Shown: one piece after another, positions 5,761-62,838 of the stretch | How the letters are laid out: each line of letters opens with the position of its first letter | How positions within the stretch are numbered: the first letter of the stretch is position 1 | From: a virus | Taxonomy: Duplodnaviria; Caudoviricetes | Length of the DNA stretch: 64,000 nt | IMG/VR virus record: IMGVR_UViG_3300046526_000409 | Coordinates: 27,967 to 91,966 of that record | Strand: one strand, 5' to 3' | Notes under the pieces: model-generated | The model's database searches: none | What the model was told of the DNA's origin: nothing | Seen by the model: only the letters and a program-made list of their open reading frames with translations | Position numbers and translations under genes: made by a program

Positions 5761-5871
5761 GGAATCGGGGCCGGATCGAATAACGGTCCGGCCCCACCGT
5801 AAACCTCTCGATAACCACACGGTCTCCACATGGATAACCACCCGGCGCACCTCGTGCTACGGGAGTAGTGA

Positions 5872-6456
5872 ATGGCATCCACCCTAAAGACCGTCTCGCA
5901 GAGCCAGAGCTTGGCCTCTCGGCAGACGGACCCTCTCCGCTCGTTCAAGTTCCACGTCCAGATCAGCCAGGTCGGAAAGCTCGCCCAGCAGTACCCGAAG
6001 CTCGGGTTCATGAGCGTCAGCGGCCTCAGCGTGACGACCGATGTCATCGCATACAGGGCTGGCGGAATGAACACCACCACCCAGAAGATGCCTGGTCAGA
6101 GCGACTTCAGCCCCGTCACCCTTTCCAAGGGAATGATGCCGGGCGACCAGGTCCTCGTGAACTGGATGTACCAGCTCTTCGATGTCATGCAGGGCAATGG
6201 CTCCGGGAGCGATACGGGTACCGAATTCCGGGCCACGATCGACATCATGCTCATCGACCACCCGGTCACGAAGAACAAGGCCGCGGTGAAGGCCGTGTGG
6301 CGCCTCTACAACGCCTGGCCGACCTCGGTGGCATTCGGTGATCTCGACGCCGGAAGCAACACGTTCGCCGTCAACCAGATCACGTTCGCCCACGAGGGGT
6401 GGGACTTCAAGGTGGCCGACAACTACGGCCCGAACTCCCAGGCGTACATCAAGTAA
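5872..6456 (+). CDS. Tail tube protein (gp19-like)
   Basis: DPLRSFKF, GFMSVSGL, YRAGG, KMPGQ, VTLSKG, WRLYNAWP, DLDA motifs. Confidence 0.95.
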   Translation: MASTLKTVSQSQSLASRQTDPLRSFKFHVQISQVGKLAQQYPKLGFMSVSGLSVTTDVIAYRAGGMNTTTQKMPGQSDFSPVTLSKGMMPGDQVLVNWMYQLFDVMQGNGSGSDTGTEFRATIDIMLIDHPVTKNKAAVKAVWRLYNAWPTSVAFGDLDAGSNTFAVNQITFAHEGWDFKVADNYGPNSQAYIK

Positions 6457-6479
6457 TCCCCGATACAAGGAAATCACTC

Positions 6480-7334
6480 ATGACTGAAATGCAGTACGAC
6501 TGGACCTTCGATTCTCCCGCTGGTGGCCGGTCGGTCGACGTCCTTGGCGACACTCCGGGCGCGACCGCCGCCATCGACTCCCTCCTCACCAGCTCGGCCG
6601 GGGAGCCGCCGGCCATCCCTGCGCCCGCTGACTGCATCGTCACTCTCCCCGCGGGACTGGTCCGAGAGGACCACATCATCACGGAGGCAGAGGTACGTGA
6701 GCTGACGGGTGCCGACGAGGAGGCCCTGGCCCGCGTCCGATCCAACCCGCTCCGCCTGCTGGAGACACTCCTGGAGCTGGGCACCGTCCGCATCGGCGAC
6801 GTGCCGGCCACCTCGGACGTTCTTCCCCAGCTCCTTCTCGGCGACCGGGATGCCCTCGTCGTCGCCATCCGCCGGGTCACCTTCGGCGACGAGATGGAGT
6901 TCTCCGAGATCATCTGCCCCACCTGTGGTGAGGACTTCGCAGCGAAGATCTCCCTCGGCGCCATCGAGCCCACGACGGTGACCTCAGGCCGCCTGACGGT
7001 GCCGATGCGCAAGGGTGGCTACGCCATCGTGCGGTATCCCAACGGCGCCGATCAGGCCGCCATGCTCGCGCTTCCCAAGGCGACGGACGCCGAGCGCAAC
7101 ACCTTCCTGCTGGGTCGCTGCCTGGTGGAGGTCCGGGACGCGCAGGGCAAGGCCACGCCTGGCAGCGCGGACCTGGCCAGGTCGCTCGGCATGGGGGACA
7201 TCCGCACCATCCTCAAGCAGCTCGCCGCAACGCAGCCTGGTCCGCGGCTGCTGGAGGTGTCGATCGAGCACGAAGCGTGCGGCGGGGAGGTTCCGCTGCC
7301 CCTCTCGGTGGCGGACATCTTTCGCGATTTCTGA
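6480..7334 (+). CDS. Tail assembly chaperone / baseplate-hub-like protein
   Basis: VRELTGADEE, GDRDAL..AIRRVTFG, CPTC; lies between tube and tape measure genes. Confidence 0.75.
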   Translation: MTEMQYDWTFDSPAGGRSVDVLGDTPGATAAIDSLLTSSAGEPPAIPAPADCIVTLPAGLVREDHIITEAEVRELTGADEEALARVRSNPLRLLETLLELGTVRIGDVPATSDVLPQLLLGDRDALVVAIRRVTFGDEMEFSEIICPTCGEDFAAKISLGAIEPTTVTSGRLTVPMRKGGYAIVRYPNGADQAAMLALPKATDAERNTFLLGRCLVEVRDAQGKATPGSADLARSLGMGDIRTILKQLAATQPGPRLLEVSIEHEACGGEVPLPLSVADIFRDF

Positions 7335-7494
7335 CGCCCGAGCGACACGGGCTGACTACACCACCCTCGCCTACGCCCACCCCGAGTGGCAGCTCAGCGA
7401 GATCAAACAACTGACGGTCAGCGAGCGCGAGTACTGGCGCGACCTGGCCCTCTGGGTCAAGGAACGAAGGGAGGCGGCGGCGTCCAGTGGCTGA
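7321..7494 (+). CDS. Probable frameshift extension of the tail chaperone
   Basis: Open +1 frame with WQLSEIKQLTVSEREYW and no ATG/GTG/TTG of its own after 7320. Confidence 0.6.
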   Translation, partial: FAISDARATRADYTTLAYAHPEWQLSEIKQLTVSEREYWRDLALWVKERREAAASSG

Positions 7495-10400
7495 AGAGAA
7501 CGAGATCAACCGGGGCGAGCCCAACTTTGGGGGCCGCCTCCTCGGCACCAACGGAATGCAGCGGGCGGCCGACAAGGTCTCCAGCGACATCGACAAGCTC
7601 GGTGCCAACATCGCCGCCCTCAACCGCGCCCTCCAGGGTGCGATCAACTCGGCCACGCGAGGGGCGGCGTTCCGTGGCATGCCGACGCAGGCATTCCCGG
7701 CGGCCAACCAGACGACCCGCATCAACGCGGCCCCGATCTCCCACCCGCCGGCCAACACCGTCATCCAGGCTGGCGGCAGTGCGGGCTCCGCCTTCACGCA
7801 CCCTGTCACCGGCCGCGTCTACAGCGGGGATCTCGGCGCTCGCCTTTCCGACCGCTACAACGCGCAGGTCGGCCGCTACGACGCGCGCACTGCCGCACAG
7901 TCCTCCATGGCGCAGGCGCAAGCACAACTCCGCAGCGCGCAGGAGTCTGCCCGACAGCAGTCGGCGCTCCGGCAGGAGCAGCTCCAGCTCGCCCAGATGC
8001 AGCGCGAGGCCCAGCGGCAGGCACAGCAGGCGGCACAGCGTCAGCAGGAAGCCGCAGCCGCTCAGGCCCGCTACCAGGCGCAGCAGACCTCCGCATCGGC
8101 ACGCTCCGGCGTCAATCCAGACCTGCTGGGCCGCGTCACCCCTGGTCGGGTGGCGCAGGCTCGGCAGACCAATGCCGACGCCCGCTACGGCTCGCTGTTC
8201 GACGAGGCGATCCGCCGCCAGAACATCGCCAGCAACCCGACATACGGACTGCGCGTCGGGCAGCGGATGTGGGCGTACAACCGGGCCACGGGCCTGTCCA
8301 GTGCCACCGTCAGCGGCAGCGGTGTGTACGCCTCGCGCAACGGCACGGTACTCAACGCAGGGCGCCGGCAGCGTGATGGCTGGGACGTTCCTCCGGCAGG
8401 CGGATTCTCTAACCAGATACCCCTGGATGACCGCGGCTCTGTCGGGTTCGGGGGCAGCAGCTCAAGTGGCAACTTCGCAGCAACGGTGCCATCCAACAAC
8501 AGCAGCTCCTCGGTAGACACCGCCGCTCCTGCCAACTTCGGCAAGGGGCCCGGCAACACGCTCTACCAGCAGGCGGTCAAGTACGGCGACCGCATGAAGC
8601 CGCAGATGGAGGAGATGGACCGGTACACCAACTGGGCCTCCATAGCCTCCGGCGGTGCGCCGTCCGGCTACGACAAGTGGGGCTGGAAGAACAAGATCCG
8701 TGACCACAGCTACGGCATGGTCGTGGCCCAGTCCACCGAGGACGCGAGCAACGCGAACTTCCTCCTGGATAAGAACTTCGGCCTGACGTACGGCACTTCG
8801 GCGCAGTCCTCTGCCCGCGGGAACGCCTTCGGTGCCGCGTACGTCGCCGGCTTGGACGCTGAGACCGGCGCCAAGCTCTACAGCAGCATGTACAACCCGC
8901 AGGCGTCGCTCGCCGCCCAGCGTCTTGGCTACGGCCGGACCATCGGCTCGGGAGGCAAGGCGGCTGGCATCGGCTCGCTCTCCGACAACATCATGTCGCG
9001 CACGTTCGGGTCCTCATCGATCTCGTCCAAGAAGTTCGCGGCGGCCACGGCCACCGGCCAGGTCCTCGACTACAACGTCGACCAGCTCGGCCAGGCCAGC
9101 GGCTGGGACGCAGACACGATCGACAACCTCAAGGAGTACATGCGGGGGCGCAACACCCTGTTGCAGAACTCCAAGATGTCCTCGTCCGCTGCCGACAAGC
9201 TGATCGCACAGGCCGCGCAGACTGGCGGTAAGGGCGACGACGCCCGCAAGAAGCTGTCCAAGTACGGCGTCTCGGAAAGCCTCGGGCAGACGAGGAAGAC
9301 CTTCGAATCCCAGGAGCGTCAGCACGACGCCAACATGGGTGACTCCTTCGCCCACAACCTGGAGACCGCCACCAAGGCGGTGCAGAAGTTCGAAGGCGCC
9401 ATCAACTCGATCCTCGAACTGCCCGGCATCAAGCAGGTCGTCGGCGCCTCAGGTGCCTGGGCCACGGCCACCAAGGAGCCGGTCAAGCAGATCAAGTCGA
9501 TGTGGGACTTCGGCAAGAGCCTGCTGCCCACTGGCATCTTCGGTGGCGCGGCCGGAGCTACCGGCTCCACGGGCGGGGGCGACAGCAAGTCACACACCGC
9601 CACCTCCAACCACGTGGCCAGTGGGAACGCCGGTTCCGCCATCGCCGCTGCGCTGACCCAGATCGGCGTTCCCTACGTGTGGGGCGGCGAGCAGGAGGGC
9701 AAGGGCTTCGACTGCTCGGGCCTTACCCAGTGGGCATTCCGGAAGGCTGGCATCAACCTGCCCCGCACCTCGCAGGAGCAGATGGGCGTCGGCGTCGGTG
9801 TCGACAAGCAGCACATCCAGCCCGGCGACCTGCTGTTCCCCGAGCCCGGTCACGTGATGATGGCGATCGGAAACGGCAAGCTGGTCGAGGCGCCGCACAC
9901 CGGTCTGGATGTCCGCGTCCGCTCGTACGGACTCGGCGAGATCAAGGCAGTCCGTCGCGTGGCCAGCGCGGTCGGTGCCCTGGCCAGCTATAACACCGAC
10001 ACCAAGCAGACCGACGACGACTCCGCTGGCAACGCCGGATGGTTCGGAGGGTCGGGCAACAGCGTCGGTCAGGAAGAGGTGGACGCCATCGCCGCCGCGC
10101 TGTCCGGCGGCGGCGGCTACACCATGGGCGCGCAGACCAGCGGCACCGGCCAGTCGAGCAACGCAGACAGCGCCACGGCGGTCTCCAGCGCCCCTTCGAA
10201 CCCGAAGGGCAACGTCGCCCTGGGCAAGAAGCTCGCGGCCAAGCGGGGCTGGACGGGCAAGGAGTGGGACGCGCTCTACCAGCTCTGGCAGCACGAGTCC
10301 GGCTGGCGTACGAACGCGGATAACCCCACGTCAGACGCGTTCGGCATCCCCCAGGCGCTTCCTGGATCGAAGATGGCGTCCAAGGGCAAGGACTGGAAGA

Positions 10401-44199: not shown

Positions 44200-44919
44200 G
44201 TGAACGCCCTCACCTTCCGCAGTGACATCACCGTCGAGCTGGTCAAGCACGACGCCGCCGACACCGACGTCCTCTTCGCAGCTCGCGTATCCACCGGAGC
44301 CCACACCCAGGTCCCAGAGTTCGGAGACCTCACCAAGCCCGACCTCGGGCTCATCAACTACCTGATGCGCGACCGGCACGGCAGCCCCTTCGAGCACAAC
44401 TCCATGACCTTCCGGATCGAAGCCCCGATCTTCGTCATCCGGGAGTGGATGAGGCACAGAGTTGGCTGGAGCTATAACGAAGAGAGCGCGCGCTACAAGG
44501 AATTGGCGCCGGTCTTCTACACCCCAGGCCCGAACCGCAAGCTCGTGCAACAGGGACGCCCCGGCAAGTACGAGTACGTCCAGGGCACCGAGCACCAGCG
44601 CCAGGCCGCCGAAGGCCACATCTGGCACGCCTGCGACGAAGCCAGAGAGCGCTACCAGGAGATGCTCGCCGCCGGCATCGCCCGCGAGGTCGCCCGCACC
44701 GTCCTCCCCGTCGGCACCTACAGCTCCATGTACGCCACCTGCAACGCACGCTCGCTGATGCACTTCCTCGGCCTGCGCACCACCGACGAACGGGCCACCT
44801 TCCCGTCCTTCCCGCAGCGCGAGATCGAGATGGCCGGCGAGCAGATGGAACACCTCTGGGCCCAGCTCATGCCCGCCACCCACGCCGCGTTCAACGCCCA
44901 CGGCCGCGTCGCGCCCTGA
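44200..44919 (+). CDS. thyX: FAD-dependent thymidylate synthase
   Basis: HGSPFEH, REWMRHR..SYNEESARY, NARSLMHFLGLR, QREI. Confidence 0.96.
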   Translation: MNALTFRSDITVELVKHDAADTDVLFAARVSTGAHTQVPEFGDLTKPDLGLINYLMRDRHGSPFEHNSMTFRIEAPIFVIREWMRHRVGWSYNEESARYKELAPVFYTPGPNRKLVQQGRPGKYEYVQGTEHQRQAAEGHIWHACDEARERYQEMLAAGIAREVARTVLPVGTYSSMYATCNARSLMHFLGLRTTDERATFPSFPQREIEMAGEQMEHLWAQLMPATHAAFNAHGRVAP

Positions 44920-44939
44920 CGCCCTACGAAAGGCACACC

Positions 44940-45419
44940 TTGCCCGGCCTCTTCGACCCGATCATCGACATGCTCCCCACCAAGGCCCGCGTCATCAAGG
45001 ACCTCGCCAGCAACCGCTACGCCGTGCACTTCGCCAGGGTCGAGCCCGGCAGCGGCGCCGCGATCAACCAGGGACGGTTCAACGGTGTCCGCGGTCAGCT
45101 CGAATTCACCACGCCGCCGTACGTCAGCACCGACCCGGTCCTCCGCCTCACGCTGCCCGAGTGCGACACCCTCCACGCAGCTCTCGGCAAGACCCTCGGC
45201 AAGACGTCCGAGCAGGACCTGAAGCCCCTGAAGGACGAACTCGCCACGGCCTACGAAAACCGGGCCCAGGTCGAGCAGGAGCGCGACGACGCGCGCAACC
45301 GCAACAAGGTCCTCGTCCAGGAAGCGGGCCGGCACAAGAACGAGCTGCGCGACACCCAGGCCCGTCTCGCCCAGGTCTCCGAGATGTACTCCAGCCTCCT
45401 GGACCGGCTGAGCAAGTGA
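44940..45419 (+). CDS. Hypothetical coiled-coil protein
   Basis: 159 aa. Confidence 0.55.
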   Translation: MPGLFDPIIDMLPTKARVIKDLASNRYAVHFARVEPGSGAAINQGRFNGVRGQLEFTTPPYVSTDPVLRLTLPECDTLHAALGKTLGKTSEQDLKPLKDELATAYENRAQVEQERDDARNRNKVLVQEAGRHKNELRDTQARLAQVSEMYSSLLDRLSK

Positions 45420-45574
45420 CGCTCAGCCCCACCCCACACGCCACCCGATGCGCCTGCGGCCGGCTGATCGAAGCCGACGAATACGCGGGCCAGGTCGATG
45501 GCCACACCGTCTGCGAAGTCTGCGCCGCCCCGGAGTGGGACGACGACTACGCCACAGCCCACGACTACCTCTGA
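45416..45574 (+). CDS. Small Zn-finger protein
   Basis: CACG...CEVC. Confidence 0.5.
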   Translation: MTLSPTPHATRCACGRLIEADEYAGQVDGHTVCEVCAAPEWDDDYATAHDYL

Positions 45575-45596
45575 CATCACCACCCGGAGCACCCAC

Positions 45597-46262
45597 TTGA
45601 CCGACGTCAACAACTTCCGACCGTGGCCGAAGATCCCGCGATTCAACCGCGAGTTCGTCATCACGGAGAAGCTCAACGGCACCAACAGCCAGGTCGCCGT
45701 CAAGCGCATGGCCGAGGACGAGGACCCCGCCGGCTACCTCAACTCTCACGGCTTCAACGTCGTCTCCAAGGACGACGGTCTGTACGTCCTGCGCGCCGGC
45801 AGCCGCAAGCGGTGGATCGCCCCCAACGGACAGAAGTTGGACGGCACCGTCCCGATGGACAACTTCGGCTTCGCCGCCTGGGTGGCCGAGAACGCCAACG
45901 CCCTGGCCAACCTCGGCGAGGGCACGCACTTCGGCGAGTGGTACGGCCGCGGCATCCAGCACGGCTACGGCATGACCGGCCGCAAGTGGTCGCTGTTCAA
46001 CACCACCCGCTGGGGCACCACGGGACAGGGACTCCCCGACGGATCGCCGGCTGAACTGACCGTCGTCCCCGAACTCGCCCGAGTCCGCGGCCACCTCCTC
46101 AACGAAGCCATCCGTGACTCCCTGCGTCTGCTGCGCACCCTCGGCTCCGTCGCCGAACCGGGGGCCACGGCGGAAGGGATCGTCATCTACAGCGTCGAGG
46201 CCAACCAGTGCTACAAGGCCCTGCTGGAGAACGACGACCTTCCCAAGGGACTCGTCGTATGA
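45597..46262 (+). CDS. RNA ligase (Rnl2-like)
   Basis: WPKIPR, ITEKLNGTN, GSR, FGEWYG, EGIVI, K motifs. Confidence 0.85.
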   Translation: MTDVNNFRPWPKIPRFNREFVITEKLNGTNSQVAVKRMAEDEDPAGYLNSHGFNVVSKDDGLYVLRAGSRKRWIAPNGQKLDGTVPMDNFGFAAWVAENANALANLGEGTHFGEWYGRGIQHGYGMTGRKWSLFNTTRWGTTGQGLPDGSPAELTVVPELARVRGHLLNEAIRDSLRLLRTLGSVAEPGATAEGIVIYSVEANQCYKALLENDDLPKGLVV

Positions 46263-46842: not shown

Positions 46843-47381
46843 CCGACCTGACCAAGAACGACCAGAAGAACTTCCTCGGCATCCCGATTCGCGGCGAGGG
46901 CAAGTCCGGCTCCACCCGAGTCGCACAGATCAGCAAGGAGGAGTTCGCCGCCCTGGTCAAGCCCCTCCTCGACCACCCGGACGTCCACCTCTTCGGCTGG
47001 AAGCAGTACACGCCCTACTTCAGCGACGGCGACATCTGCGAGTTCTCCGCCAAGGGCTTCTACCTGGTCACCGAGGCCGATGTCGAGCAGTACGAGGACC
47101 TCAAGGAGAACGACCCGTACATCGTCGAGGAGGTCTTCGACCCCCACTCCGACCACCCCACCCTCGGCGGCCGGCCCTACCACTGGGACTCGGAGGAGCG
47201 CAGGGGCCACTTCGGCGACTACGAGGGCCCTGACAAGCCGCTGTACGAGGCCGCCATGGAGCTGTCCGGCGCCATCAACAAGGGCAGCTCCGACTCCGTC
47301 CTGCTCGGCCTGTTCGGTGACCACTGCGAGATCCAGGTCACGAAGTCGAAGATCGAGGTTGAGGAGTACTCGCATGACTGA
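46839..47381 (+). CDS. Hypothetical phage protein
   Basis: [16 protein letters not shown]...LFGDH. Confidence 0.65.
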
Positions 47382-47883
47382 GCGCTCCAACAAGGCACTC
47401 GGCTTCCTCGTCGGCGCCGCCTACGTGGCCACCATCCCCGCCGCCAACATCGCGCTCCACCGTTACGGCACCGTCCCGGTCGGCTTCGGCCACCAGGCGC
47501 CGGCCGCGGTATTCCTCGCCGGCCCCGCCCTGGTCCTGCGGGACGCGGTGCAGTGGCTGCTCGGCCGCCGGATAGCCATCGCCGCACTCATCGTCGGCAT
47601 CGTCCTGTCCTTCCTCGTCGCCGACCCGGCGGTCGCCCTGGCCAGCGCCGTGGCCTTCGGCGTCTCCGAAGCCGCCGATATGGCCGTCTTCAGCCGGCTG
47701 TCCCCGCGTTGGGTCCGCGCGGTCCTCGCCGGAGGAGTCGTGGGCATCCTGCTCGACTCCCTGTTGTTCCTGTCCATCGCCTTCGGGTCACTCGACTTCC
47801 TCGACGGACAGATCATCGGCAAGCTCTACGGAGTCGTCCTCGGCTCCCTCGTCGTGGCGCTGCGTCGCCGCGCCGCCAGGTGA
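47374..47883 (+). CDS. VUT-family (queuosine-precursor) transporter
   Basis: [47 protein letters not shown]. Confidence 0.85.
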
Positions 47884-48656
47884 CGTTCTTCCTCGGAACG
47901 CACATCCCTTCCTGGCTCGGCAACGCCGACGTCCCGCTGTTCGTCTCGCACCGCCGTCTGATCGGCCGCAAGACCTACCCCAGAGCCATCAATACCTGGG
48001 CACTGGACAGCGGCGGATTCACCGAGATCTCCATGCACGGCCGGTGGACCATCACCTCCGCCGCATACATCGACGCCGTCCGCTGCTACCGCGACGAGAT
48101 CGGCAACCTCGCCTGGGCCAGCCCCCAGGACTGGATGTGCGAGCCGTGGATCACCCAAAAGACCGGGCTCAGCGTCACCGAGCACCAACACCGCACCGTA
48201 GGCAACTACCTCGACCTCAAGGCAGCAGCTCCTGACCTGCCGTTCGCCCCCGTCCTACAGGGCTGGGATCGCGCCGACTACCAGCACTGCGCCGAGATGT
48301 ACGAGAAGGCCGGCGTCGACCTGGCCGCCGAACCCATCGTCGGAATCGGGTCCGTATGCCGACGCCAGCACATGGACGCAGCCGTCGACATCATCACCGA
48401 CGCCACCGACCAAGGCATCAAAGTCCACGGCTTCGGCTTCAAGATCACAGGGCTAAGGCGAGTGGGCCACCTGCTCACCTCCTCGGACTCCATGTCCTGG
48501 AGCCTCCACGCACGCCACCGCCCCCCGCTCCTCGGCTGCACCCACAAGACGTGCGCCAACTGCCGCCGCTATGCCCTGCGTTGGCGTGAGAAGCCCCTGG
48601 CGGCGATCGAGGAAGCCCGCGCAAACAACCCCTACCAACTGGAGCAAGCAGCATGA
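47880..48656 (+). CDS. DpdA/TGT-like deazaguanine DNA transglycosylase
   Basis: [37 protein letters not shown]. Confidence 0.8.
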
Positions 48657-50841: not shown

Positions 50842-50910
50842 CGCGCATTAACACAATGCACAAATATGCCCTTAGCCTCCGAAAGGAGATCAATTCAAGG
50901 AGAAACGTAT

Positions 50911-51207
50911 ATGGACACCAAGAAGGATTCCAGCGCCGACGACGCCGTCTTTTTCGTCAAGAGTTCGACCAGCGCCACCGATCTGGGAGCCGCGGTCGCC
51001 CACGCCATCTACGCCCGCAAGAACGTGACCCTGCGCGCCATCGGTGCCGGAGCGATCAACCAGGCCGTGAAGAGCGTCCCCATCGCCCAGGGCTACGCCG
51101 GGTCCCGAGGCCACCGCCTCGCCATGCGGCCCGCGTTCTTCACCGCCACCGTCCCCGAGGGCGAAGTGTCCGGCCTTTCCTTCATCGTTTTCGACGAGGC
51201 CGCATAA
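50911..51207 (+). CDS. spoVS: SpoVS-family protein
   Basis: VKSSTS..DLGAAVA...LRAIGAGAINQAVK...PAF. Confidence 0.88.
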   Translation: MDTKKDSSADDAVFFVKSSTSATDLGAAVAHAIYARKNVTLRAIGAGAINQAVKSVPIAQGYAGSRGHRLAMRPAFFTATVPEGEVSGLSFIVFDEAA

Positions 51208-53078: not shown

Positions 53079-53876
53079 ATGGCAAGCACCGCTGCCGCAC
53101 TGCTGGCCGAAGCCGAGAAGTGGAAGGGGTACAAGGAAGGCGCCAGCAACCACACCGCCTTCGGCGAGTGGTACGCCACCCTCGTCAAAGACAAGTCCTT
53201 CGCCTACGCCTCCTGGTGCGACGAGTACGTCTCGTACTGCGCCCACGCGTCCGGCAACGCCGACATCGTCGGTCAGTTCGCCTACTGCCCCAGTCACGTC
53301 AACTGGTTCAAGAACCGCGGCGAGTGGCACAAGGCATCCGAGGCGATCAAGCCCGGCGACATCGTCTTCTTCGACTGGGACGACGACGGCGTCGCGGACC
53401 ACATCGAGATCGCGCGAGCGGCATCCGCCCCCGGAGCGACCGTCGCCACCATCGGCGGCAACACCAGCTCGGGCCTGGCCGGTTCGCAGTCCAACGGCGA
53501 CGGCGTCTACGAGCGCACCCGGTACCGCTCCGACATCCTCGGCTTCGGCCGGCCGGCATACAAGGCGTCGGCCTCCACGGGAACCGGGGGTACGAAGACC
53601 ACCACCACCCCGGCCAAGACCTACAAGCCGCCCGCCTTCCCCAAGGGACTCGCACCCAACAAGACGACCCCATCGGCGAAGACCCTCCAGAAGGCGCTGA
53701 AGGCCACCAGTTGGCTGGGCAACGGTGTCGAACTCTCCGACAACTACGGCCCCCAGACCCAGAAGGCCGTCGCCGGATTCAACGCCAAGCACGGCCTGAA
53801 CGACGCCGGAAAATCCTACGACCCTGCAATTGGCCCCAAGGGGTGGGCACTTCTCTTCACCCTGGCATACGGCTGA
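53079..53876 (+). CDS. Endolysin (CHAP + peptidoglycan-binding domain)
   Basis: WCDEYVS, GDIVFFDW...DHIE, TIGGNT; LQKAL...YGPQT..AV..F. Confidence 0.9.
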   Translation: MASTAAALLAEAEKWKGYKEGASNHTAFGEWYATLVKDKSFAYASWCDEYVSYCAHASGNADIVGQFAYCPSHVNWFKNRGEWHKASEAIKPGDIVFFDWDDDGVADHIEIARAASAPGATVATIGGNTSSGLAGSQSNGDGVYERTRYRSDILGFGRPAYKASASTGTGGTKTTTTPAKTYKPPAFPKGLAPNKTTPSAKTLQKALKATSWLGNGVELSDNYGPQTQKAVAGFNAKHGLNDAGKSYDPAIGPKGWALLFTLAYG

Positions 53877-54001: not shown

Positions 54002-54598
54002 GTGACTCGCAGGCCATTGTCGTGCATATCGGCAGCCCTGGTTCTGGCACTAATGCCGGTTGCCTCCAATGCACACCGCGAGGCCGTTGAAGCAGCGCTG
54101 GCCCCCACGCCGACCGCCTCCCCGTCGCCTTCCCGGAGCCAGCCGGCCAAGAAGACGCCGAAGCCCAAGAAGGCCAGGAAGACACCGAAACCCAAGGCCA
54201 AGGCGACCAAGTCGCCTCGCCCCAAGGTCAAGAAGTCTCCGCCCCCCAAGGTCACCCGCACCATCACCCCCAGAGCCTCCCGCTCCACGACGGCCACCGT
54301 CAAACCGTCGTACGCATCGCCCAAGGCGTACGCGAGATCAGTCCTCAGCCCGGCCCAATTCTCCTGCGCCGACGGCATCTTCACTCACGAAAGCAACTGG
54401 AACCCCTTCGCCAGGAACCCGAGTTCCGGGGCCTACGGAATTGCCCAGGCGCTCCCCGCGGCGAAGTACGCCTCGGCAGGCCCCGACTGGCGAACCAATG
54501 GCGTGACACAAGTCCGCTGGGGCCTTTCCTACATGAACTCGCGGTACGGCAGCCCATGCGGCGCCTGGTCCTTCTGGCAATCCCACAACTGGTACTGA
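54002..54598 (+). CDS. Secreted lytic transglycosylase
   Basis: Signal peptide, Pro/Lys linker, HESNW...SSGAYGIAQALP...YGSPCGAW..W...NWY. Confidence 0.88.
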   Translation: MTRRPLSCISAALVLALMPVASNAHREAVEAALAPTPTASPSPSRSQPAKKTPKPKKARKTPKPKAKATKSPRPKVKKSPPPKVTRTITPRASRSTTATVKPSYASPKAYARSVLSPAQFSCADGIFTHESNWNPFARNPSSGAYGIAQALPAAKYASAGPDWRTNGVTQVRWGLSYMNSRYGSPCGAWSFWQSHNWY

Positions 54599-54615: not shown

Positions 54616-55107
54616 ATGGCCGAGAACATCCGCCTGCTGCTGTGCAAGACCTGCGGGTCCATGGAGGAGCTGCCCGACTACGACGGCGACCCCCGACAGG
54701 ACTTCCTCCTCCAGACCCTCGTCAAGCGGCACCGCAACCCAGACGGCAGCCCTCACATCGCCCACCCGATGCTGAAGGTCGAGAAGCGCCACTGGGACTC
54801 GCCGTCCACGCGCGAGGAGATCGTCAAGCGCATCCGGGAGAACACCGGTCACACCGGCCTGGACCCGGCCTTCTACGACGCCAAGAACACGTTCCAAGAG
54901 GACGCGATGGCGTGCTGGTCGGCGCACAACCGGTCCATCACCTGCTCCGACTGGTGCAGCGACAAGAAGCGGCTCACCCCGGAGACCGCCGCCGAGCGCA
55001 AGGCGGCCGGCCTGCCCAAGTACAAGTCCGCCAAGGACATCTACCTCTGCCACTTCTGCCCGGTCGCCAACGCCGTCCGGCGCGCTGCCTTCGACAAGGC
55101 GGGCTGA
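54616..55107 (+). CDS. Cys-rich hypothetical protein
   Basis: CKTC, C..H...C..W, CHFCP. Confidence 0.65.
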   Translation: MAENIRLLLCKTCGSMEELPDYDGDPRQDFLLQTLVKRHRNPDGSPHIAHPMLKVEKRHWDSPSTREEIVKRIRENTGHTGLDPAFYDAKNTFQEDAMACWSAHNRSITCSDWCSDKKRLTPETAAERKAAGLPKYKSAKDIYLCHFCPVANAVRRAAFDKAG

Positions 55108-55466
55108 TGTTCCAGTACCCCGCCAAGATCCTGGCGGTAGTCGACGGTGACACGATCGACGTGGAGGCCGACCTCGGATTCGAGGTCGTCACCCGTCAGC
55201 GCATCCGCCTATACGGCATCAACGCCGCCGAGAAGAACACCCAAGCCGGCCGCGACGCCCGCCAGTTCGTCGTCGACTGGGTCACCACGTTCGGGCCGAC
55301 CTTCACTCTCGCCACCGTACAGACGCCGAAGGGCACCGACGCACGCGAGAAGTACGGCCGCTACCTCGGCACCATCACCGCTGCCTCCGCCAGCGACCCC
55401 CTCAACTCCGCGCTCGTCACGGCTGGCCTGGCCAAGCCATACGACGGGCACGGCCCCCGTCCGTGA
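55107..55466 (+). CDS. Thermonuclease (SNase) family protein
   Basis: VVDGDTI, IRLYGINA.E, EKYGRYL, LV..GLA..Y. Confidence 0.9.
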   Translation: MFQYPAKILAVVDGDTIDVEADLGFEVVTRQRIRLYGINAAEKNTQAGRDARQFVVDWVTTFGPTFTLATVQTPKGTDAREKYGRYLGTITAASASDPLNSALVTAGLAKPYDGHGPRP

Positions 55467-56221: not shown

Positions 56222-56599
56222 GTGACCCTTGACCTGTCCACCATCGCGACCACCGCCGCCGACACCGTCGAGGAGCTGACCGACGCCCAGCGCGAGCAGC
56301 TCAAGAAGATGGGGGAGGAGGCAGGCATCACCGAGGACACGGGTACGTTCGCCGAGACCGCGTTCCTCGTCGTCATAACCCCCGACGGCCAGGTCCTCGC
56401 CGAGCCCGACATCAACGCGAAGATCCGCCTCCGTCGGCCGGCCAACATCGACGACTTCCAGCGTGCCGGCCACGTCCTGGTCGACGACGCCATCGCGATC
56501 AAGACCGCCTCGATCACCGGCCAGCAGATGATGCAGATGACCGCCGCCATGGTCGAGCAGCAGCGCACGCAGGCCCTCGTCAACAGCCTGAAGTTGTGA
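56222..56599 (+). CDS. Hypothetical protein
   Basis: RBS AGGAG; TAFLVVITPDG. Confidence 0.6.
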   Translation: MTLDLSTIATTAADTVEELTDAQREQLKKMGEEAGITEDTGTFAETAFLVVITPDGQVLAEPDINAKIRLRRPANIDDFQRAGHVLVDDAIAIKTASITGQQMMQMTAAMVEQQRTQALVNSLKL

Positions 56600-56771
56600 C
56601 CTTGGTGTACCCTCTTCGTTGAGTTGAGCTTTCCTCCGGGAGATGCTCTCTCCTCTCAAGGGAAGGCCCCCCGGAGACCACCAATCTCCATCTGTAGGGG
56701 GGCCTTCGCCTATTTCCGGGCCCAAAATGCCGCCCCTTTGAATTCGACATATCGCCGGTAGAGTTCGGGAT

Positions 56772-57746
56772 ATGGAGACGAACAACTTCTACAGTCGTCT
56801 CGGGAACAACGCTCAGCCCATCAAGGAAGCCGCCATCGGCGCCTCCGGCTATTTCTCAAGCCCGGCTGATCACCTTGACCCGAACCTTTTCAACGGCGAC
56901 CGCATCCATTCCGACGTCCGTAATTGGCTCCTCGGAACCCTCTACACCTTCTGGTCCACTCGCTACAACGCCCCAGGTCAGTGGAGCAACGTATGGCTCG
57001 CCGGCTCCGGCGCCAGCTACCAGTGGGCCGCCGACCGCGGCAATGGTGACCTCGACATCCTCATCGGCGTCGACTTCTCTTCCTTCGGCTGGTACAACCC
57101 CGACTACGCAGGAATGACCAGCCAGGAAATCGCCGACCTTTTCGACGAGGAACTCAAGGCGGAACTCTGGCCCGACACCGCCACCACCCAAATCGGGGAC
57201 CGGGTGTACGAGGTCACCTACTACGTCAGCCCCAACAGCCGCGACATCCGCAATATCAACCCCTACGCGGCCTACTCCCTCACCAAGGACGAGTGGACCG
57301 TCACGCCGCCCGAGCTGCCGGCAAACCCCCGCGACCTGTACCCGCAGGAGTTCCAGGACGCCGCCGCCCGAGACACCGCCGAGGCCCACCGCCTCGTCAA
57401 CACCTACAACGCCCTCGCCGACGAGATGAAGATCTCCCCGCAGGGCGGAGGCCACTGGGTCACCCTCGGCTCCCAGCTCACGACGGTCGTCGCCCAGGCC
57501 GCCCAGCTCTTCGACGACATCCACCTCGGCCGGCGCGCAGCATTCGCCCCCGGCGGCAGCGGGTACGGCGACTTCGCCAACTACCGCTGGCAGGCCGGCA
57601 AAGAGTCCGGGGCCGTCGAGATGCTCCGCTCCATCAAGGCCGTACAGGTCGCCACCCACGACCAGGTAGAGACCGACGCCTGGGGCCAGCCCATCAGCCC
57701 CGCCCAGTTCGCCCTCCGCAACGCAGCCCTGTGGCGGTCCCGGTGA
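56772..57746 (+). CDS. Pol-beta-superfamily nucleotidyltransferase
   Basis: LAGSG...GDLDILIG...EVTYY. Confidence 0.75.
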   Translation: METNNFYSRLGNNAQPIKEAAIGASGYFSSPADHLDPNLFNGDRIHSDVRNWLLGTLYTFWSTRYNAPGQWSNVWLAGSGASYQWAADRGNGDLDILIGVDFSSFGWYNPDYAGMTSQEIADLFDEELKAELWPDTATTQIGDRVYEVTYYVSPNSRDIRNINPYAAYSLTKDEWTVTPPELPANPRDLYPQEFQDAAARDTAEAHRLVNTYNALADEMKISPQGGGHWVTLGSQLTTVVAQAAQLFDDIHLGRRAAFAPGGSGYGDFANYRWQAGKESGAVEMLRSIKAVQVATHDQVETDAWGQPISPAQFALRNAALWRSR

Positions 57747-58228
57747 ACGTCGTCATAGCCATCGACGGTGTCCTCAAGCGTCCCGACAGTGACGCCGTCA
57801 TCCCCGCCGGCCAGCTTCTCTACCACGGTCTCGCCGAAACCCACGTCGTGCACCTGGCCGACGACGCCGACACCTTCAACTCCTCGAAGGCACTCGCGCA
57901 GAACTGGCTCAAGCGCAACGGGCTCACCAAGCACGTCAGGGTGATCAAGCCCTACGCCAGCGACCGCTACGGACTCCTCGGCGGCCTCCAGCAGCTCCGC
58001 CCGGACCTCCACGTCGACCTGGTCGTCGTTGCCGACCCCGTCCAGGCCAGCGATCTCCTCGCAGCCGGCTACACCACTGTGCTCTTCACCCACCCCCGCT
58101 ACACCCGCCCCCAGTGGAAGCCCGACTACCGCGGCGAGCCGAAAGCCTGGGACGACCTCGTCGCCGAGATCGAAGCCCAGGACCAGCACTACGCCCAGGA
58201 CGCCAGGCGCTCAGCCGGCCCCCTGTAG
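57743..58228 (+). CDS. Degenerate HAD-fold protein
   Basis: VVIAIDGVL (first Asp missing), WL..NG, VVADP. Confidence 0.55.
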   Translation: MNVVIAIDGVLKRPDSDAVIPAGQLLYHGLAETHVVHLADDADTFNSSKALAQNWLKRNGLTKHVRVIKPYASDRYGLLGGLQQLRPDLHVDLVVVADPVQASDLLAAGYTTVLFTHPRYTRPQWKPDYRGEPKAWDDLVAEIEAQDQHYAQDARRSAGPL

Positions 58229-58239
58229 GAGACACCCTC

Positions 58240-59718
58240 TTGAAGCTCTACCTGGCCGGGACCGAAATCCCGGCCTACCGGAGCCTGCTCGCCCAGGAGG
58301 GTCACACCACCGTGGCCCTCTCCTACTGGGGACTGCGCAGGCGCACCAAGTTCACCAAGCCCTACGACCTGACGGAGAAGTTCCGGGACGACGCGGAGAT
58401 CCTCATCGACTCCGGATGCCACTCCATCAACAGCAAGCCCAACAGCGACGTCAGTGACGCCGAGCTGCGCGACATCGCCGAGCACTACTACGACGTGTTC
58501 GTCGCACAGAACCTCCAGCGGCTGGCCTACTTCGTCGAGTTCGACGCCCACCAGCTCGGCCACGAGTGGATCCGCGAGCAGCGCCAGCGCTTCGACGCCG
58601 GCAGGGACAAGGCCATCGTCGTATGGAACCCGGAGACCGGCCGAGAAGGGCTGGAGCACCTCTGCGAGGACTGGCCCAACGTGGGCATCACCCAGGCCGG
58701 CGTTGACCGCCTCGACGTCTCACACCTGCTGCCCCACCTCGCCAAGACCACCGACACCAAGCTCTTCGGCCTCGGCATGACCAAGACGGCGGCCCTGGAG
58801 CACGGCCTCTGGTACGGCGCAGCCTCCACCTCCTGGATATCCCCGAGCCAGTTCGGCGACACCATCATCTGGGCCGGCAAGGAACTGCACCGCTACCCGC
58901 GGCGATACAAGGACATGGCCCGCGCCCGGCACAAGCACGCCATCGCCGACGCCGGCTTCGACGCCGAAGCGGTCATCGCCGACGACTCCACCGAGGTCCT
59001 CCGGCTGTCGGTATGGTCCTGGCGGCAGTTCACCGACCACATCAACGGCAGGGGAGTAACTGCCCCCGGAAATCCCCCTACCGAGGAAAAAGCGGATCCG
59101 ACCCCCGAAGCAGTTGATCGACTGCCCCAAACGGCGCGGCACGCAGGAGTAACTCCGGCCACCGCGAAGCACCGGGAGAAGATCCCCTTCCCCGGCCTCG
59201 CGCTGGTGCAGAACACGGCCGAGGACGGCACCGTCAGCCGGCCCATCCTGAAGACCGTCGACCCCGGCATCCGCGCCTGCGACCGCTGCTACCTCTCCAG
59301 CAGTTGCCCCGCATCCGATCCGGGCTCCACCTGCGCGTTCAGCCTTCCCGTCGAGATCCGCACCAAGGACCAGCGCGCCGATGTCGCCGCTGCCCTCTTG
59401 GAAATGCAGGCAGGCCGCGTCTTCAGCCTGCGGTTTGCCGAGGAACTGGAGGGCGGCATTACCAATCCAGTGCTTTCCGGAGAACTCGACCGCTTCAACA
59501 AGATGCTCAAGACCGTCGAGGACATGGAGGAGAACTCCTTCTCCGTGAAGATCACCGCGACCCAGAAGGGGGCAGCCGAGACCGGCCTCATCAGCCGGCT
59601 GTTCGGCCGCGACGAAGGCGAACGAGCCCGTTCCCTCCCCGAACCCGTCAGCGTCGAACGCGCCGCCATCGAGACGGGATTCGTTGACGCCGAGGTGATC
59701 GAGGACCTGGCCGCATGA
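58240..59718 (+). CDS. TGT/DpdA-like TIM-barrel protein fused to a Cys-cluster/helical domain
   Basis: TTG after AGGAG; LYLAG, LSYW, IDSG, EFD, VVW, FGLGMT, STSW; CDRCYL..CP...CAF. Confidence 0.65.
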   Translation: MKLYLAGTEIPAYRSLLAQEGHTTVALSYWGLRRRTKFTKPYDLTEKFRDDAEILIDSGCHSINSKPNSDVSDAELRDIAEHYYDVFVAQNLQRLAYFVEFDAHQLGHEWIREQRQRFDAGRDKAIVVWNPETGREGLEHLCEDWPNVGITQAGVDRLDVSHLLPHLAKTTDTKLFGLGMTKTAALEHGLWYGAASTSWISPSQFGDTIIWAGKELHRYPRRYKDMARARHKHAIADAGFDAEAVIADDSTEVLRLSVWSWRQFTDHINGRGVTAPGNPPTEEKADPTPEAVDRLPQTARHAGVTPATAKHREKIPFPGLALVQNTAEDGTVSRPILKTVDPGIRACDRCYLSSSCPASDPGSTCAFSLPVEIRTKDQRADVAAALLEMQAGRVFSLRFAEELEGGITNPVLSGELDRFNKMLKTVEDMEENSFSVKITATQKGAAETGLISRLFGRDEGERARSLPEPVSVERAAIETGFVDAEVIEDLAA

Positions 59719-59867
59719 ACTACAGGAGTAACTGGACCGACATGGACGACATCAGCAACCAGGGTCGTACGACCGAGCGCCCCTGCCCGCACTGCAAGGG
59801 GCGCTGGCCCGAGATGGACGCGTGCGTCATCTGTGAAGGTGACGGCACCGTGGAAGTCGGCGGCTAG
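59715..59867 (+). CDS. Small Zn-finger protein
   Basis: CPHCKG...CVICEGDG; ATGA overlap. Confidence 0.5.
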   Translation: MNYRSNWTDMDDISNQGRTTERPCPHCKGRWPEMDACVICEGDGTVEVGG

Positions 59868-60786: not shown

Positions 60787-62838
60787 GTGCCACAGACTCT
60801 CATATCCAGCATCGACGTCGTTGCCCGAGCCGGCAGCGGCGTCGATACCTTGCGTGCCGTCGACTACCTTCGCGTCTCCACCGAGGAGCAGAAAAAGGGC
60901 TACGGCATCAGCTACACCAGCAAGCGCACCAAGAACCACATCACCAAAAAGGGTTGGGCGCACGCCGGCACCTACGCCGACGAGGGCTTCAGCGGCAGCC
61001 TCGACCACACTGAGCGCCCCGACCTCAAGCGCCTCATGGGCGACGCCCAGCAAAAGCCGCGCCCCTTCGACGTCGTCGTCGTTCCTGAGGAGCGCGCCAT
61101 CGGCCGGCGCGACCGCGCCTTCTGGCCTTGGGTGTGGAAACTCGAAGACCTCGGCATCTTCGTCGCCATCGTCCGCGGTGACTACGACAACACCACCGAG
61201 GCCGGCCGCTCCCGCATGCGCAAGGAAGCCGACCGAGCTGAAGATGAGCGCATCACCATCCGCGACCGCACCCAGGGTGGCCGGCAGGAGAAAGCCGAAC
61301 TCGGGGGCCACGACGGCGGACTGTCCCCCTACGGCTACCGCATCGAAGACCAGGGGAAGCGCGGAGAAAGCCGGCTGGTCCTCGACACCGGAGACGGCTA
61401 CGAGGGATACCCCACCCTTCGCCGTGCGTACAGCTTGATCGTCCAGGAGGGGAAGACATCCTCCGAGGTAGAGGACCTCTTCAACGCTGAGCGCGTTCCC
61501 GGACCATCCCTGGACCACTGGCCTCGCGGTTCCCTGCGCCGCATCCTCCTTGGTCGTGCCGTCCAGGAGTCGAAGCGAGTCTTCCGGGACCCGGAAGGCC
61601 CCAAGACGAAAGTCGGGCCGGACGGCAGTCCCCTCTACGGAGACACGGTGGTCATCAACCTCGACCCCATCTTCACGGAGGCAGAGCTGACGCTCCTCAA
61701 CACGGCACTCGCCAGGACTTCACGCGCTCCGCGCACCTCGGAAGGCGTCACCCATCCCCTCAGCCGGCATGTCTACGGTGAGTGCGGCAACGTCTTCACC
61801 GGAGTGAGCTGGGACGGCGTGACGACCAAGAAGGAGCGCGCGTACCGCTGCACGGGCCGGCTCACCGGGCGCAAGGGCAGTGAGCGGGAGTGCAGGACGT
61901 GTATGCAGATCGACGCTCCGGCTCTGGAGAGCAGAGTCTGGGACGAGGTCTGCACCATGCTCGAAGACCCGGAGAGGCTCCGGAGCATGGCCGAAGACTG
62001 GGTCGAGATGGTGAAGAGCAACGGCGTCGACTACGCGGCCCGGATCGACGAACTCGGCGAGCAGATCGAGGAGAAGGAATTCGCCATCGACGCCACCACG
62101 GCTGCCACGGCGTCGAGGTCCAAGCGTCGGGGGCTCGACAGGCAGGCGACCCAGGAGGCCATCAAGCGCGCCACGCGAGAGCTGGAGGAGGAGCTGGCCA
62201 GTCTGGAAGACCTCCAGCGCGAGGCAATCGCCTGGCAGGCCGAGATGGACGACACGGCGGCACGTGCGCAGGACCTTCAGCGGCTCTCCGAGATCGCCCA
62301 GGCGCATCTGCACTCCATGGACGCTCGGCAGAGGGAGGACGTCATCGACCTGCTCAACCTCAAGGTCACGATCCTCGGCCCTGCGACGCGTAGGAAGACC
62401 CGCAAGGACGACCTGATCTCCGACTGGTTTCGCGAGCGCGAACGAGTGGTGCCCACACTGACCGATGCGGCGTGGGCCGTTGCTGAACGCGTCATCCACA
62501 AGCCGAAGGGGCGTCGCGCTAGCAATCCGCGCGCGCTCGTTGACGCCATCCTCACGAAGGCGCGTACTGGCTGTGCATGGAAGAGCCTGGAGTACGGCAA
62601 CGTCGCCAGTATCTTCAAGCGTTGGTACGGCAACGGCACGTGGGAGGAACTCATGGACGCTTTGGCGGACTTCCCTGGCACCCCCGCCGCGGACAGCGTG
62701 GTGCTTCCGCCCTTGCGGATTGAAGGGCGCGTCGACCCCCGCCTCCTCATTCACGAAGATATTCCTACTGATCAAGACGACCCGTTCAAGGCGTCAAGAT
62801 CAGGTGGAATATCTTTCCTATTGACTGTGGCTGCCTGA
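60787..62838 (+). CDS. Large serine recombinase (integrase) with C-terminal IS5-like HTH domain
   Basis: YLRVST, DEGFSG, RP.L..L, PYGYR, Zn ribbon, coiled coil; LTDAAW...AIL..ARTGCAW...F.RW...G.W. Confidence 0.92.
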   Translation: MPQTLISSIDVVARAGSGVDTLRAVDYLRVSTEEQKKGYGISYTSKRTKNHITKKGWAHAGTYADEGFSGSLDHTERPDLKRLMGDAQQKPRPFDVVVVPEERAIGRRDRAFWPWVWKLEDLGIFVAIVRGDYDNTTEAGRSRMRKEADRAEDERITIRDRTQGGRQEKAELGGHDGGLSPYGYRIEDQGKRGESRLVLDTGDGYEGYPTLRRAYSLIVQEGKTSSEVEDLFNAERVPGPSLDHWPRGSLRRILLGRAVQESKRVFRDPEGPKTKVGPDGSPLYGDTVVINLDPIFTEAELTLLNTALARTSRAPRTSEGVTHPLSRHVYGECGNVFTGVSWDGVTTKKERAYRCTGRLTGRKGSERECRTCMQIDAPALESRVWDEVCTMLEDPERLRSMAEDWVEMVKSNGVDYAARIDELGEQIEEKEFAIDATTAATASRSKRRGLDRQATQEAIKRATRELEEELASLEDLQREAIAWQAEMDDTAARAQDLQRLSEIAQAHLHSMDARQREDVIDLLNLKVTILGPATRRKTRKDDLISDWFRERERVVPTLTDAAWAVAERVIHKPKGRRASNPRALVDAILTKARTGCAWKSLEYGNVASIFKRWYGNGTWEELMDALADFPGTPAADSVVLPPLRIEGRVDPRLLIHEDIPTDQDDPFKASRSGGISFLLTVAA

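Follow-up and report, generated by a model that had tools for sequence, protein, structure and literature searches.

A nucleotidyltransferase linked to DpdA-derived and putative HAD-like proteins that lack the catalytic nucleophile in a Streptomyces prophage and related actinobacterial phages

Four co-oriented genes, here called A, B, C and D, are found at 56772-59867 of a 64,000-nucleotide stretch (the window) of a Streptomyces prophage, the last 64 kb of a 91,966-bp IMG/VR provirus record that was judged complete (IMGVR_UViG_3300046526_000409, positions 27,967 to 91,966). Most of the four overlap, and the cassette adjoins lysis genes. It combines one intact enzyme, the nucleotidyltransferase A, with two relatives of enzymes, B and C, in which the nucleophile of covalent catalysis is gone and the binding residues are kept; conservation is strong and the linkage of the genes is tight. 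With two enzyme relatives lacking the attacking residue, the job of this module is probably new chemistry or binding, not ordinary base swapping. The explanation that we favour, tentatively and short of an even chance, is a nucleic-acid-directed nucleotidyltransferase complex in which subunits derived from DpdA and from HAD proteins would bind rather than catalyse. What the analysis shows is the anatomy of the genes, the folds of A and C, the origin of C in DpdA, the lost residues and the synteny; the formation of such a complex, its substrate and its biological role are what we infer. The genes are as follows.

56772-57746, + strand: gene A, 324 aa, nucleotidyltransferase of the pol-beta superfamily
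57743-58228, + strand: gene B, 161 aa, GTG start, GTGA overlap with gene A; putative HAD-like protein (Pnkp-phosphatase-like)
58240-59718, + strand: gene C, 492 aa, TTG start 5 nt after AGGAGA; tRNA-guanine transglycosylase (TGT)/DpdA-type barrel, Cys cluster and helical tail
59715-59867, + strand: gene D, 50 aa, ATGA overlap with gene C; DnaJ-type zinc ribbon

The A/B and C/D overlaps are 4 bp each. A longer open reading frame for gene C, from 58114, would overlap gene B. All four genes are real, because abundant homologues were found for each of them (matches down to E = 1e-296); their G+C content at third codon positions is 0.84-0.88. Genes A, B and C have no significant match in Pfam, NCBIfam, PADLOC models or PDB sequences, and for gene C nothing was found in Pfam even at E <= 1, so that neither PF23859 nor a TGT model matches it. 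Among the sequence libraries searched the only family to name gene C was phrog_887, which matches it over its full length (2.8e-59).

Gene C carries most of the argument, and its parts can be listed from the barrel to the tail.

58240-59049, + strand: residues 1-270, TIM barrel of TGT/DpdA type (pLDDT mostly >87)
58408-58416, + strand: D57-S58-G59, motif of the general acid/base Asp (DpdA Asp95), present in 117/117 sequences
58819-58863, + strand: AASTSW, residues 194-199, at the place of xDSxxW (Asp256) in active DpdAs, then G206-D207-T208
59278-59334, + strand: Cys cluster C347-x2-C350-x5-C356-x8-C365, about 75 residues past the region of the canonical Zn site
59335-59718, + strand: helical C-terminal domain, helices 376-403 and 410-431, invariant Q390/R393/E401
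59593-59607, + strand: tail motif G-[LM]-[IL]-S-R-[LI]-F-G, residues 452-456, after a low-complexity stretch

At the level of fold, gene C belongs to the TGT/DpdA superfamily. The barrel is matched by Foldseek at E = 1.6e-6 with probability 1.0, and for residues 1-276 the VIA comparison gave Z scores of 16.2 for the archaeal enzyme ArcTGT (1iq8), 16.0 for TGT, 15.8 for Cap10 (9ntn_B) and 15.5 for DpdA (7ui4), with an rmsd of 3.6-3.9 over about 255-265 residues. DpdA needs Asp95 as general acid/base, Asp130 and His181 for base recognition, and Asp256 as nucleophile, and both D95A and D256A are inactive (PMC10164549). In the gene C family the nucleophile has been lost. Position 195, the second of AASTSW, is A in 62, S in 38, T in 16 and G in one of 117 sequences and is never D, and it is A, T or S in all 14 genome copies (of 15) in which the motif was read. 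Variants of the motif within the family include AASTSW, VASTSW and VSSTSW. The aligned motif has Asp in phage CAjan (CDSSSW), in a second, canonical DpdA of the window (SDSMSW), in Bacillus phage BCD7 (GDSTTW) and in Bacteroides phage BS162P1 (VDSVTW); gene C thus lacks the nucleophilic Asp of an active DpdA.

E100-F101-D102, aligned at the level of motifs only with the base-recognition residue Asp130, is kept in 116-117 of 117 sequences at the expected place in the barrel, and the position of the base-recognition His is H in 77 and F in 38. Conserved basic stretches include GLRRRTKF and RYPKKYKDQARKRHR. Residues 205-275 contain no conserved Cys or His, so the canonical Zn site that follows the barrel is absent; the family of the window's canonical DpdA has C220/C225/C228 after its barrel. 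As read from the sequence, then, gene C keeps the residues of a guanine/7-deazaguanine pocket as well as basic surfaces, and lacks the Asp that forms the covalent intermediate.

Behind the barrel a disordered linker (residues 271-340) leads to the Cys cluster. Wherever family members possess this region the cluster is conserved, and BCD7 gp21 and BS162P1 gp88 share it; it is deleted in a clade of proteins of about 428 aa. Functionally critical sites are favoured positions for inteins. One gene C homologue, P0123, carries a LAGLIDADG-containing intein at residues ~374-691, immediately before the fourth Cys (...GAN/CFHGDTLIL...LTGN/CAYDIP), and for this reason the cluster is probably functionally important. 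All 117 sequences have F455 in the tail motif and 114 have R453, and the motif has been retained in phages of Actinomycetota, Bacillota and Bacteroidota, including BCD7 and BS162P1. By its appearance it may be a short linear motif for docking, with a faint resemblance to peptides that bind sliding clamps.

Gene C descends from phage DpdA, to judge by the following comparisons. The profile of the gene C family matches BCD7 gp21 at 1.5e-47, spanning barrel and tail, and BLASTP of gene C itself against gp21 gives 3e-10. In BCD7, gp21 stands directly after genes for GTP cyclohydrolase (FolE), QueC, QueE and QueD, and it is listed as a DpdA in Hutinet et al. 2019. Its barrel matches DpdAs of the CAjan, Seurat and 9g type. 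The connection was made through BCD7 and BS162P1 because direct comparison of the gene C profile with that of the window's canonical DpdA family (hhalign, local mode) yielded only two short collinear segments, with E = 0.004 and 0.01. A scan of viral contigs with BCD7 gp21 returned BCD7 itself as the only match. Bacteroides phage BS162P1 (3851-5483) has a split DpdA of the BCD7 type in two adjacent genes, both annotated as hypothetical: a barrel of 275 aa with the nucleophile Asp, and a Cys4/helical domain of 251 aa. Since the two parts occur there as separate genes, gene C is a protein of two modules. No homologues of A or B were found within about 5-6 kb of these Asp-containing relatives in BCD7 and BS162P1.

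Gene A is the member of the module in which the catalytic residues are intact.

57003-57056, + strand: catalytic motif G78-S79-G80 ... D93-L94-D95, invariant in 121/121 sequences
57210-57212, + strand: third carboxylate, E147, kept in 117/121 sequences

The protein consists of an N-terminal segment, a nucleotidyltransferase core at about residues 45-180 and a helical C-terminal domain at 186-321 (AlphaFold2 model, pLDDT 88.6). It has the hG[GS] and DxD motifs, the third carboxylate and the alpha/beta core of the pol-beta nucleotidyltransferase superfamily, and because the catalytic motifs are near-invariant the enzyme is probably active. N-terminal to the core lies a conserved segment, GxSGYFSxPxxxLDPxLF. 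Searches gave more than 856 members of the family, chiefly from viruses, and related ESM clusters carry NTP_transf_2. Structural matches of the core (over about residues 35-180) include 1no5, 1ylq and 8xeh at Z 6.2-6.4, with ties in VIA among minimal nucleotidyltransferases/MNT/MntA, CdnE/G, Tailor, AadA and PAPD1 at Z ~5-6.4. The best Foldseek matches in the PDB are CdnD CD-NTases, and these are weak (E = 4.6e-3, TM 0.24-0.26). The C-terminal domain resembles only generic helical bundles. Assignment to a subfamily was therefore dropped, three structure searches having given weak, tied matches for the core and generic bundles. Two homologues have altered loops. P0148 carries a loop insertion of 160 aa, and in Nonomuraea roseoviolacea (5300-6814 of its locus) the gene A profile matches in two pieces about 425 nt apart, a sign that the loop preceding the Glu strand, also the site of the P0148 insertion, carries an insertion or has been disrupted.

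Gene B presents a second case of a lost nucleophile.

57752-57775, + strand: motif I of gene B, VIAIDGVL, without the nucleophile Asp

An exhaustive profile search gave 370 representatives of this family, an initial search having found only word-poor homologues. In 166 relatives the nucleophile position is occupied by A (45), V (34), T (34) or S (18), also by Q or F, and never predominantly by Asp, so the DxD of HAD motif I with its nucleophilic first Asp is missing. The acid two positions further on (D+2) is retained (E in 81 and D in 60 of the 166, or 85%). The family pattern reads hhhh-x-h-[ED]-G-V-L, L-h-[TS]-[DE], D-L-V-[VI]-[ED]-x-[DN]-P; along with the D+2 acid it thus keeps a HAD-like motif II (T/S) and motif IV ([ED]x[DN]P). 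The named ESM clusters nearest to gene B are all HAD (0.87-0.88), which is a lead only. Three of 47 family members match phrog_415, a polynucleotide kinase, and the orthologue in phage GiJojo is annotated as a hydrolase.

Gene D has the pattern CxxCxGxW...CxxCxGxG, with weak matches to DnaJ_CXXCXGXG and anti-TRAP. A similar small gene follows C in phages BRock and GiJojo, in two metagenomic contigs (L046 and L048) and in 7 of 15 prophages.

Genes A, B and C travel together. They occur in the same order and on one strand in 9/9 phage loci (the window, BRock, GiJojo and six metagenomic phage contigs). Prophage loci in genomes of Streptomyces, Terracoccus, Nonomuraea, Actinomadura and Herbidospora number 15; all of them have B and 14 have A, and the A-B-C order is maintained in 14-15 of the 15. 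Among temperate members SpoVS, DUF7178 and lysis genes are seen repeatedly upstream, and an integrase downstream. BRock is a virulent myovirus with 52% GC and 29 tRNAs (PMC7453282), so the module occurs in phages of widely differing kinds and is no lysogeny-specific moron. It is vertically conserved in a broad group of actinobacterial phages, virulent and temperate. Two genes near the cassette in relatives are related to anti-defence functions: a 106-kb metagenomic contig (L045) has a Pfam match to Tad3 (Thoeris anti-defence) at 7177-7584, 1.4 kb upstream of the cassette, and GiJojo has an ArdA-like anti-restriction gene near it. In searches of the literature the module was found to be undescribed, the only related item being a catalogue entry for BRock with a single DpdA.

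An earlier note, made from the letters of this DNA alone, had anticipated much of this anatomy. Its three tightly linked genes and small zinc finger are confirmed by the overlaps and homologues, as are the intact GS..DxD of the nucleotidyltransferase, the helical tail fused to the barrel, and the TGT-like barrel that keeps DSG and has AASTSW in place of SDSMSW. It had written the Cys motif as CxxCx4C, which should read CxxCx5Cx8C. Its HAD protein lacking the first Asp is correct in the loss of Asp throughout the relatives, less secure in the fold. The note had named the folds and the co-occurrence of the genes in relatives as the points on which its proposal would turn; since the folds of A and C were confirmed and the genes do co-occur, the proposal of an uncharacterised, tightly linked module for handling nucleotides or nucleobases holds.

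The note had also suggested that two TGT folds in one phage act as writer and reader. The second gene of this kind that it had recognized, at 47880, is indeed a canonical DpdA, and it is overlapped by a transporter gene.

47880-48656: canonical DpdA (PF23859, E = 1.3e-95), about 8 kb upstream of the cassette
47080-47883: Vut_1/YhhQ-like transporter, overlapping the canonical DpdA gene

No FolE or QueCDE was found among the tested neighbours of this DpdA, and a transporter and DpdA in such a setting suggest a salvage-type pair for 7-deazaguanine modification of DNA. Its close relatives are mostly in mycobacteriophages (399/407 records). A canonical DpdA was not found in BRock or GiJojo, with the genome of the window as positive control (2.9e-119). 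The two TGT folds of the prophage are therefore not an obligate pair, and the pairing of a writer with a reader does not hold generally; a non-catalytic reader as such does fit the universal loss of the nucleophile in gene C. For BRock a single DpdA, which may be the gene C orthologue, and no preQ0 genes are listed (Hutinet et al. 2019). For a link to packaging, also raised in the note, no evidence was found.

In the nucleotidyltransferase complex that we tentatively favour, gene C would bind nucleic acid, most likely DNA, without exchanging bases, and may hold a flipped-out guanine-like base. Gene B would bind a phosphate-bearing end or a nucleotide. Together with the zinc ribbon D, these two would recruit or gate gene A. 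All of the chemistry would then fall to gene A, which would transfer nucleotidyl groups onto nucleic acid or onto a bound ligand. The phage would benefit in lytic growth, where its nucleic acid might be protected or marked against host defences. Several observations weigh against this explanation. The fold matches of gene A are weak (Z 5-6.3) and not specific to a subfamily, and a HAD fold for gene B is weakly supported. Several phages carry additional, variable genes between A, B and C, so that strict stoichiometric coupling is not assured. A search for Rosetta-stone fusions that join any of these three genes found none; homologues of unusual length proved to be those with the P0148 insertion and the P0123 intein. 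Lastly, the conserved D207, with only small residues at position 195, could be a relocated catalytic carboxylate instead of a sign of lost catalysis.

This last point is the basis of a rival that we consider unlikely, in which gene C would still be a glycosyl-transfer or glycosylase enzyme, with D207 or water replacing the missing Asp, while A and B prepare a donor or process the product of a DNA base modification. D207, in a GDT that is specific to the clade, is D in 114 and E in 3 of 117 sequences, and active DpdAs have S, E or T there; the restriction of position 195 to A, S, T and G is as expected of an active site that is still packed, and the Asp residues of the base pocket are invariant. 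The module is also a core one, syntenic in virulent and temperate phages, like many DNA-modification genes. However, the Asp of DSG is replaced in two genome copies, by N in Actinomadura and by E in Nonomuraea, which argues against catalysis of the TGT type; the canonical Zn site is absent, BRock is listed without genes for preQ0 synthesis, and no canonical enzyme was found in BRock or GiJojo. A related scheme is about as unlikely: the DpdA-derived barrel and the HAD-derived protein would be natural substrate-trap subunits of a novel phage machine for modifying nucleic acid, in which the barrel would flip a guanine out of DNA and the nucleotidyltransferase would nucleotidylate that guanine or a neighbouring group, giving an undescribed modification, or D207 would serve a new type of glycosyl transfer. 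Less likely again is a decoy or sponge against host defence, its dead DpdA pocket and dead HAD site sequestering an immunity molecule that bears guanine or 7-deazaguanine, or poisoning homologous host enzymes. Candidate targets would be the NDG-tagged CD-NTase of type IV CBASS, QatABCD intermediates and Dpd components. Both pseudoenzymes do look like substrate-trap variants, with the nucleophile gone and the binding residues kept; immunity based on 7-deazaguanine exists, and the ArdA-like and Tad3-domain genes near two of the cassettes would suit such a role. A decoy leaves the strictly conserved, intact nucleotidyltransferase unexplained, however, and the conserved basic surfaces suggest nucleic-acid binding. 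The module is also universal in its lineage, where most anti-defence genes are patchy.

Repair or modification of RNA is improbable. Here a TGT-like binder of tRNA, a Pnkp-like binder of ends and an enzyme that adds nucleotides would counter host defences that cleave tRNA. The matches of gene B relatives to phrog_415, the classic role of tRNA as ligand of the TGT fold, the RNA ligase-family protein encoded in the window at 45498-46262 and the 29 tRNAs of BRock are all in keeping with it. Against it, the closest active relatives of gene C are DpdAs, which act on DNA, gene B has neither the phosphatase nucleophile nor a kinase domain, the window contains no tRNA genes, and gene A does not specifically resemble CCA-adding or RlaP enzymes. 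The least likely of the explanations is phage-borne signalling or defence similar to type IV CBASS, in which gene A would be a synthase of the CD-NTase kind and gene C a Cap10-like partner that holds or primes it. Cap10 matches gene C as well as TGT and DpdA do, CdnD enzymes head the Foldseek list of gene A, if weakly (TM ~0.25), gene A has a conserved N-terminal extension, and an integrase adjoins the cassette in temperate members. Yet gene C is derived from DpdA by sequence and has no counterpart of the catalytic Asp248 of Cap10. Gene A begins METNNFYSRLG (MAGYEFYL or MSGPNAFY in relatives) and lacks the N-terminus M(G/S)G(G/S)GG. Pfam searches found no Cap9/QueC or effector gene in the cassette or its tested neighbours, and genes A-D have no PADLOC match. 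Nor does the module have lysogens to protect in the virulent BRock, which makes defence by a prophage unlikely. For nucleotide signalling, which the earlier note had also listed, we likewise found no evidence, gene A not being assignable to the CD-NTases.

The surroundings of the cassette in the window, which has a GC content of 66% and nearly all of its genes on the + strand, are as follows.

53079-53876: lysis-type gene, CHAP/peptidoglycan-binding
54002-54598: lysis-type gene, SLT
55104-55466: SNase, listed with the lysis-type genes
56660-56720, + strand: GC-rich hairpin, then TATTTCC, between the preceding gene (56222-56599) and gene A
60787-62838: serine integrase (Resolvase and Zn_ribbon_recom), downstream of the cassette

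The hairpin folds as RNA into the stem GAAGGCCCCCC...GGGGGGCCTTC (z = -1.97 for the whole region) and was not called by a scan for consensus terminators; it may serve as a terminator or as a regulatory stem, and would set the cassette apart as a unit of its own. The integrase has a C-terminal DUF4096 domain (N-terminal domain of IS4/5 transposases, E = 3.8e-11). Farther upstream, 44200-46262 encodes ThyX (1.2e-47) and the RNA ligase-family protein (9e-7). A SpoVS homologue is located at 50866-51207 (6.8e-16), and SpoVS is also found upstream of the cassette in four related contigs (L045-L048).

We know of no route for 7-deazaguanines into DNA other than phage DpdA. With the DpdAs of CAjan, 9g and BCD7 (gp21) gene C shares the TIM barrel and, in collinear order, FYLGT/LYLAGTE, DSG, what is probably the acidic residue of base recognition, LHG and xSxxW; with gp21 it also has in common the linker, the CxxCx5Cx8C cluster, the helical domain and the G-I-L-S-R-L-F tail. 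It differs from them in that the nucleophile Asp has become A, S, T or G in every member of its clade, and in that the clade is linked to the nucleotidyltransferase and HAD-like genes in place of adjacent FolE/QueCDE. Eukaryotic TGT provides another likeness in QTRT2 (QTRTD1), a non-catalytic paralogue with the TGT fold that aids substrate binding for its catalytic partner. QTRT2 differs in that it pairs with an active TGT paralogue; an active DpdA is missing from most of the phages that carry the module, and the enzyme to which gene C is linked is a nucleotidyltransferase. For gene B, T4-type polynucleotide kinase-phosphatase is the system to compare: some relatives match a phage polynucleotide kinase family weakly, and motifs II and IV and the D+2 acid are kept, but the kinase domain and the Asp that would form the acyl-phosphate are absent.

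The closest architectural precedent is Cap10-CdnD of type IV CBASS (Wassarman et al. 2025, bioRxiv 10.1101/2025.04.06.647259), in which a protein with a TGT fold and no canonical Zn site is likewise encoded next to a nucleotidyltransferase; here the fold has been put to a new use, that of holding its nucleotidyltransferase partner. Cap10 retains the catalytic Asp248 and depends on the QueC-like Cap9, and what it binds is the glycine-rich N-terminus of the CD-NTase in its NDG-modified form. These defining features are all absent from the cassette. Cap10-CdnD is at home in bacterial defence islands, in contrast to the core phage block that contains the module.

The modification status of phages with a 'singleton DpdA' has been said to be one that 'is difficult to predict' (Hutinet et al. 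2019). One large clade of such singletons, known from actinophages and from the prophages of five or more actinobacterial genera, is without the nucleophile but has kept the base pocket, and is locked to an intact nucleotidyltransferase and to a similarly disabled HAD-like protein. With the nucleophile lost, these genes should not be annotated as DNA or tRNA transglycosylases. Their function is directly testable, since BRock, GiJojo and related phages are in culture. With Cap10-CdnD of type IV CBASS as the first, the module gives a second and independent example of a TGT fold that has been recruited alongside a nucleotidyltransferase.

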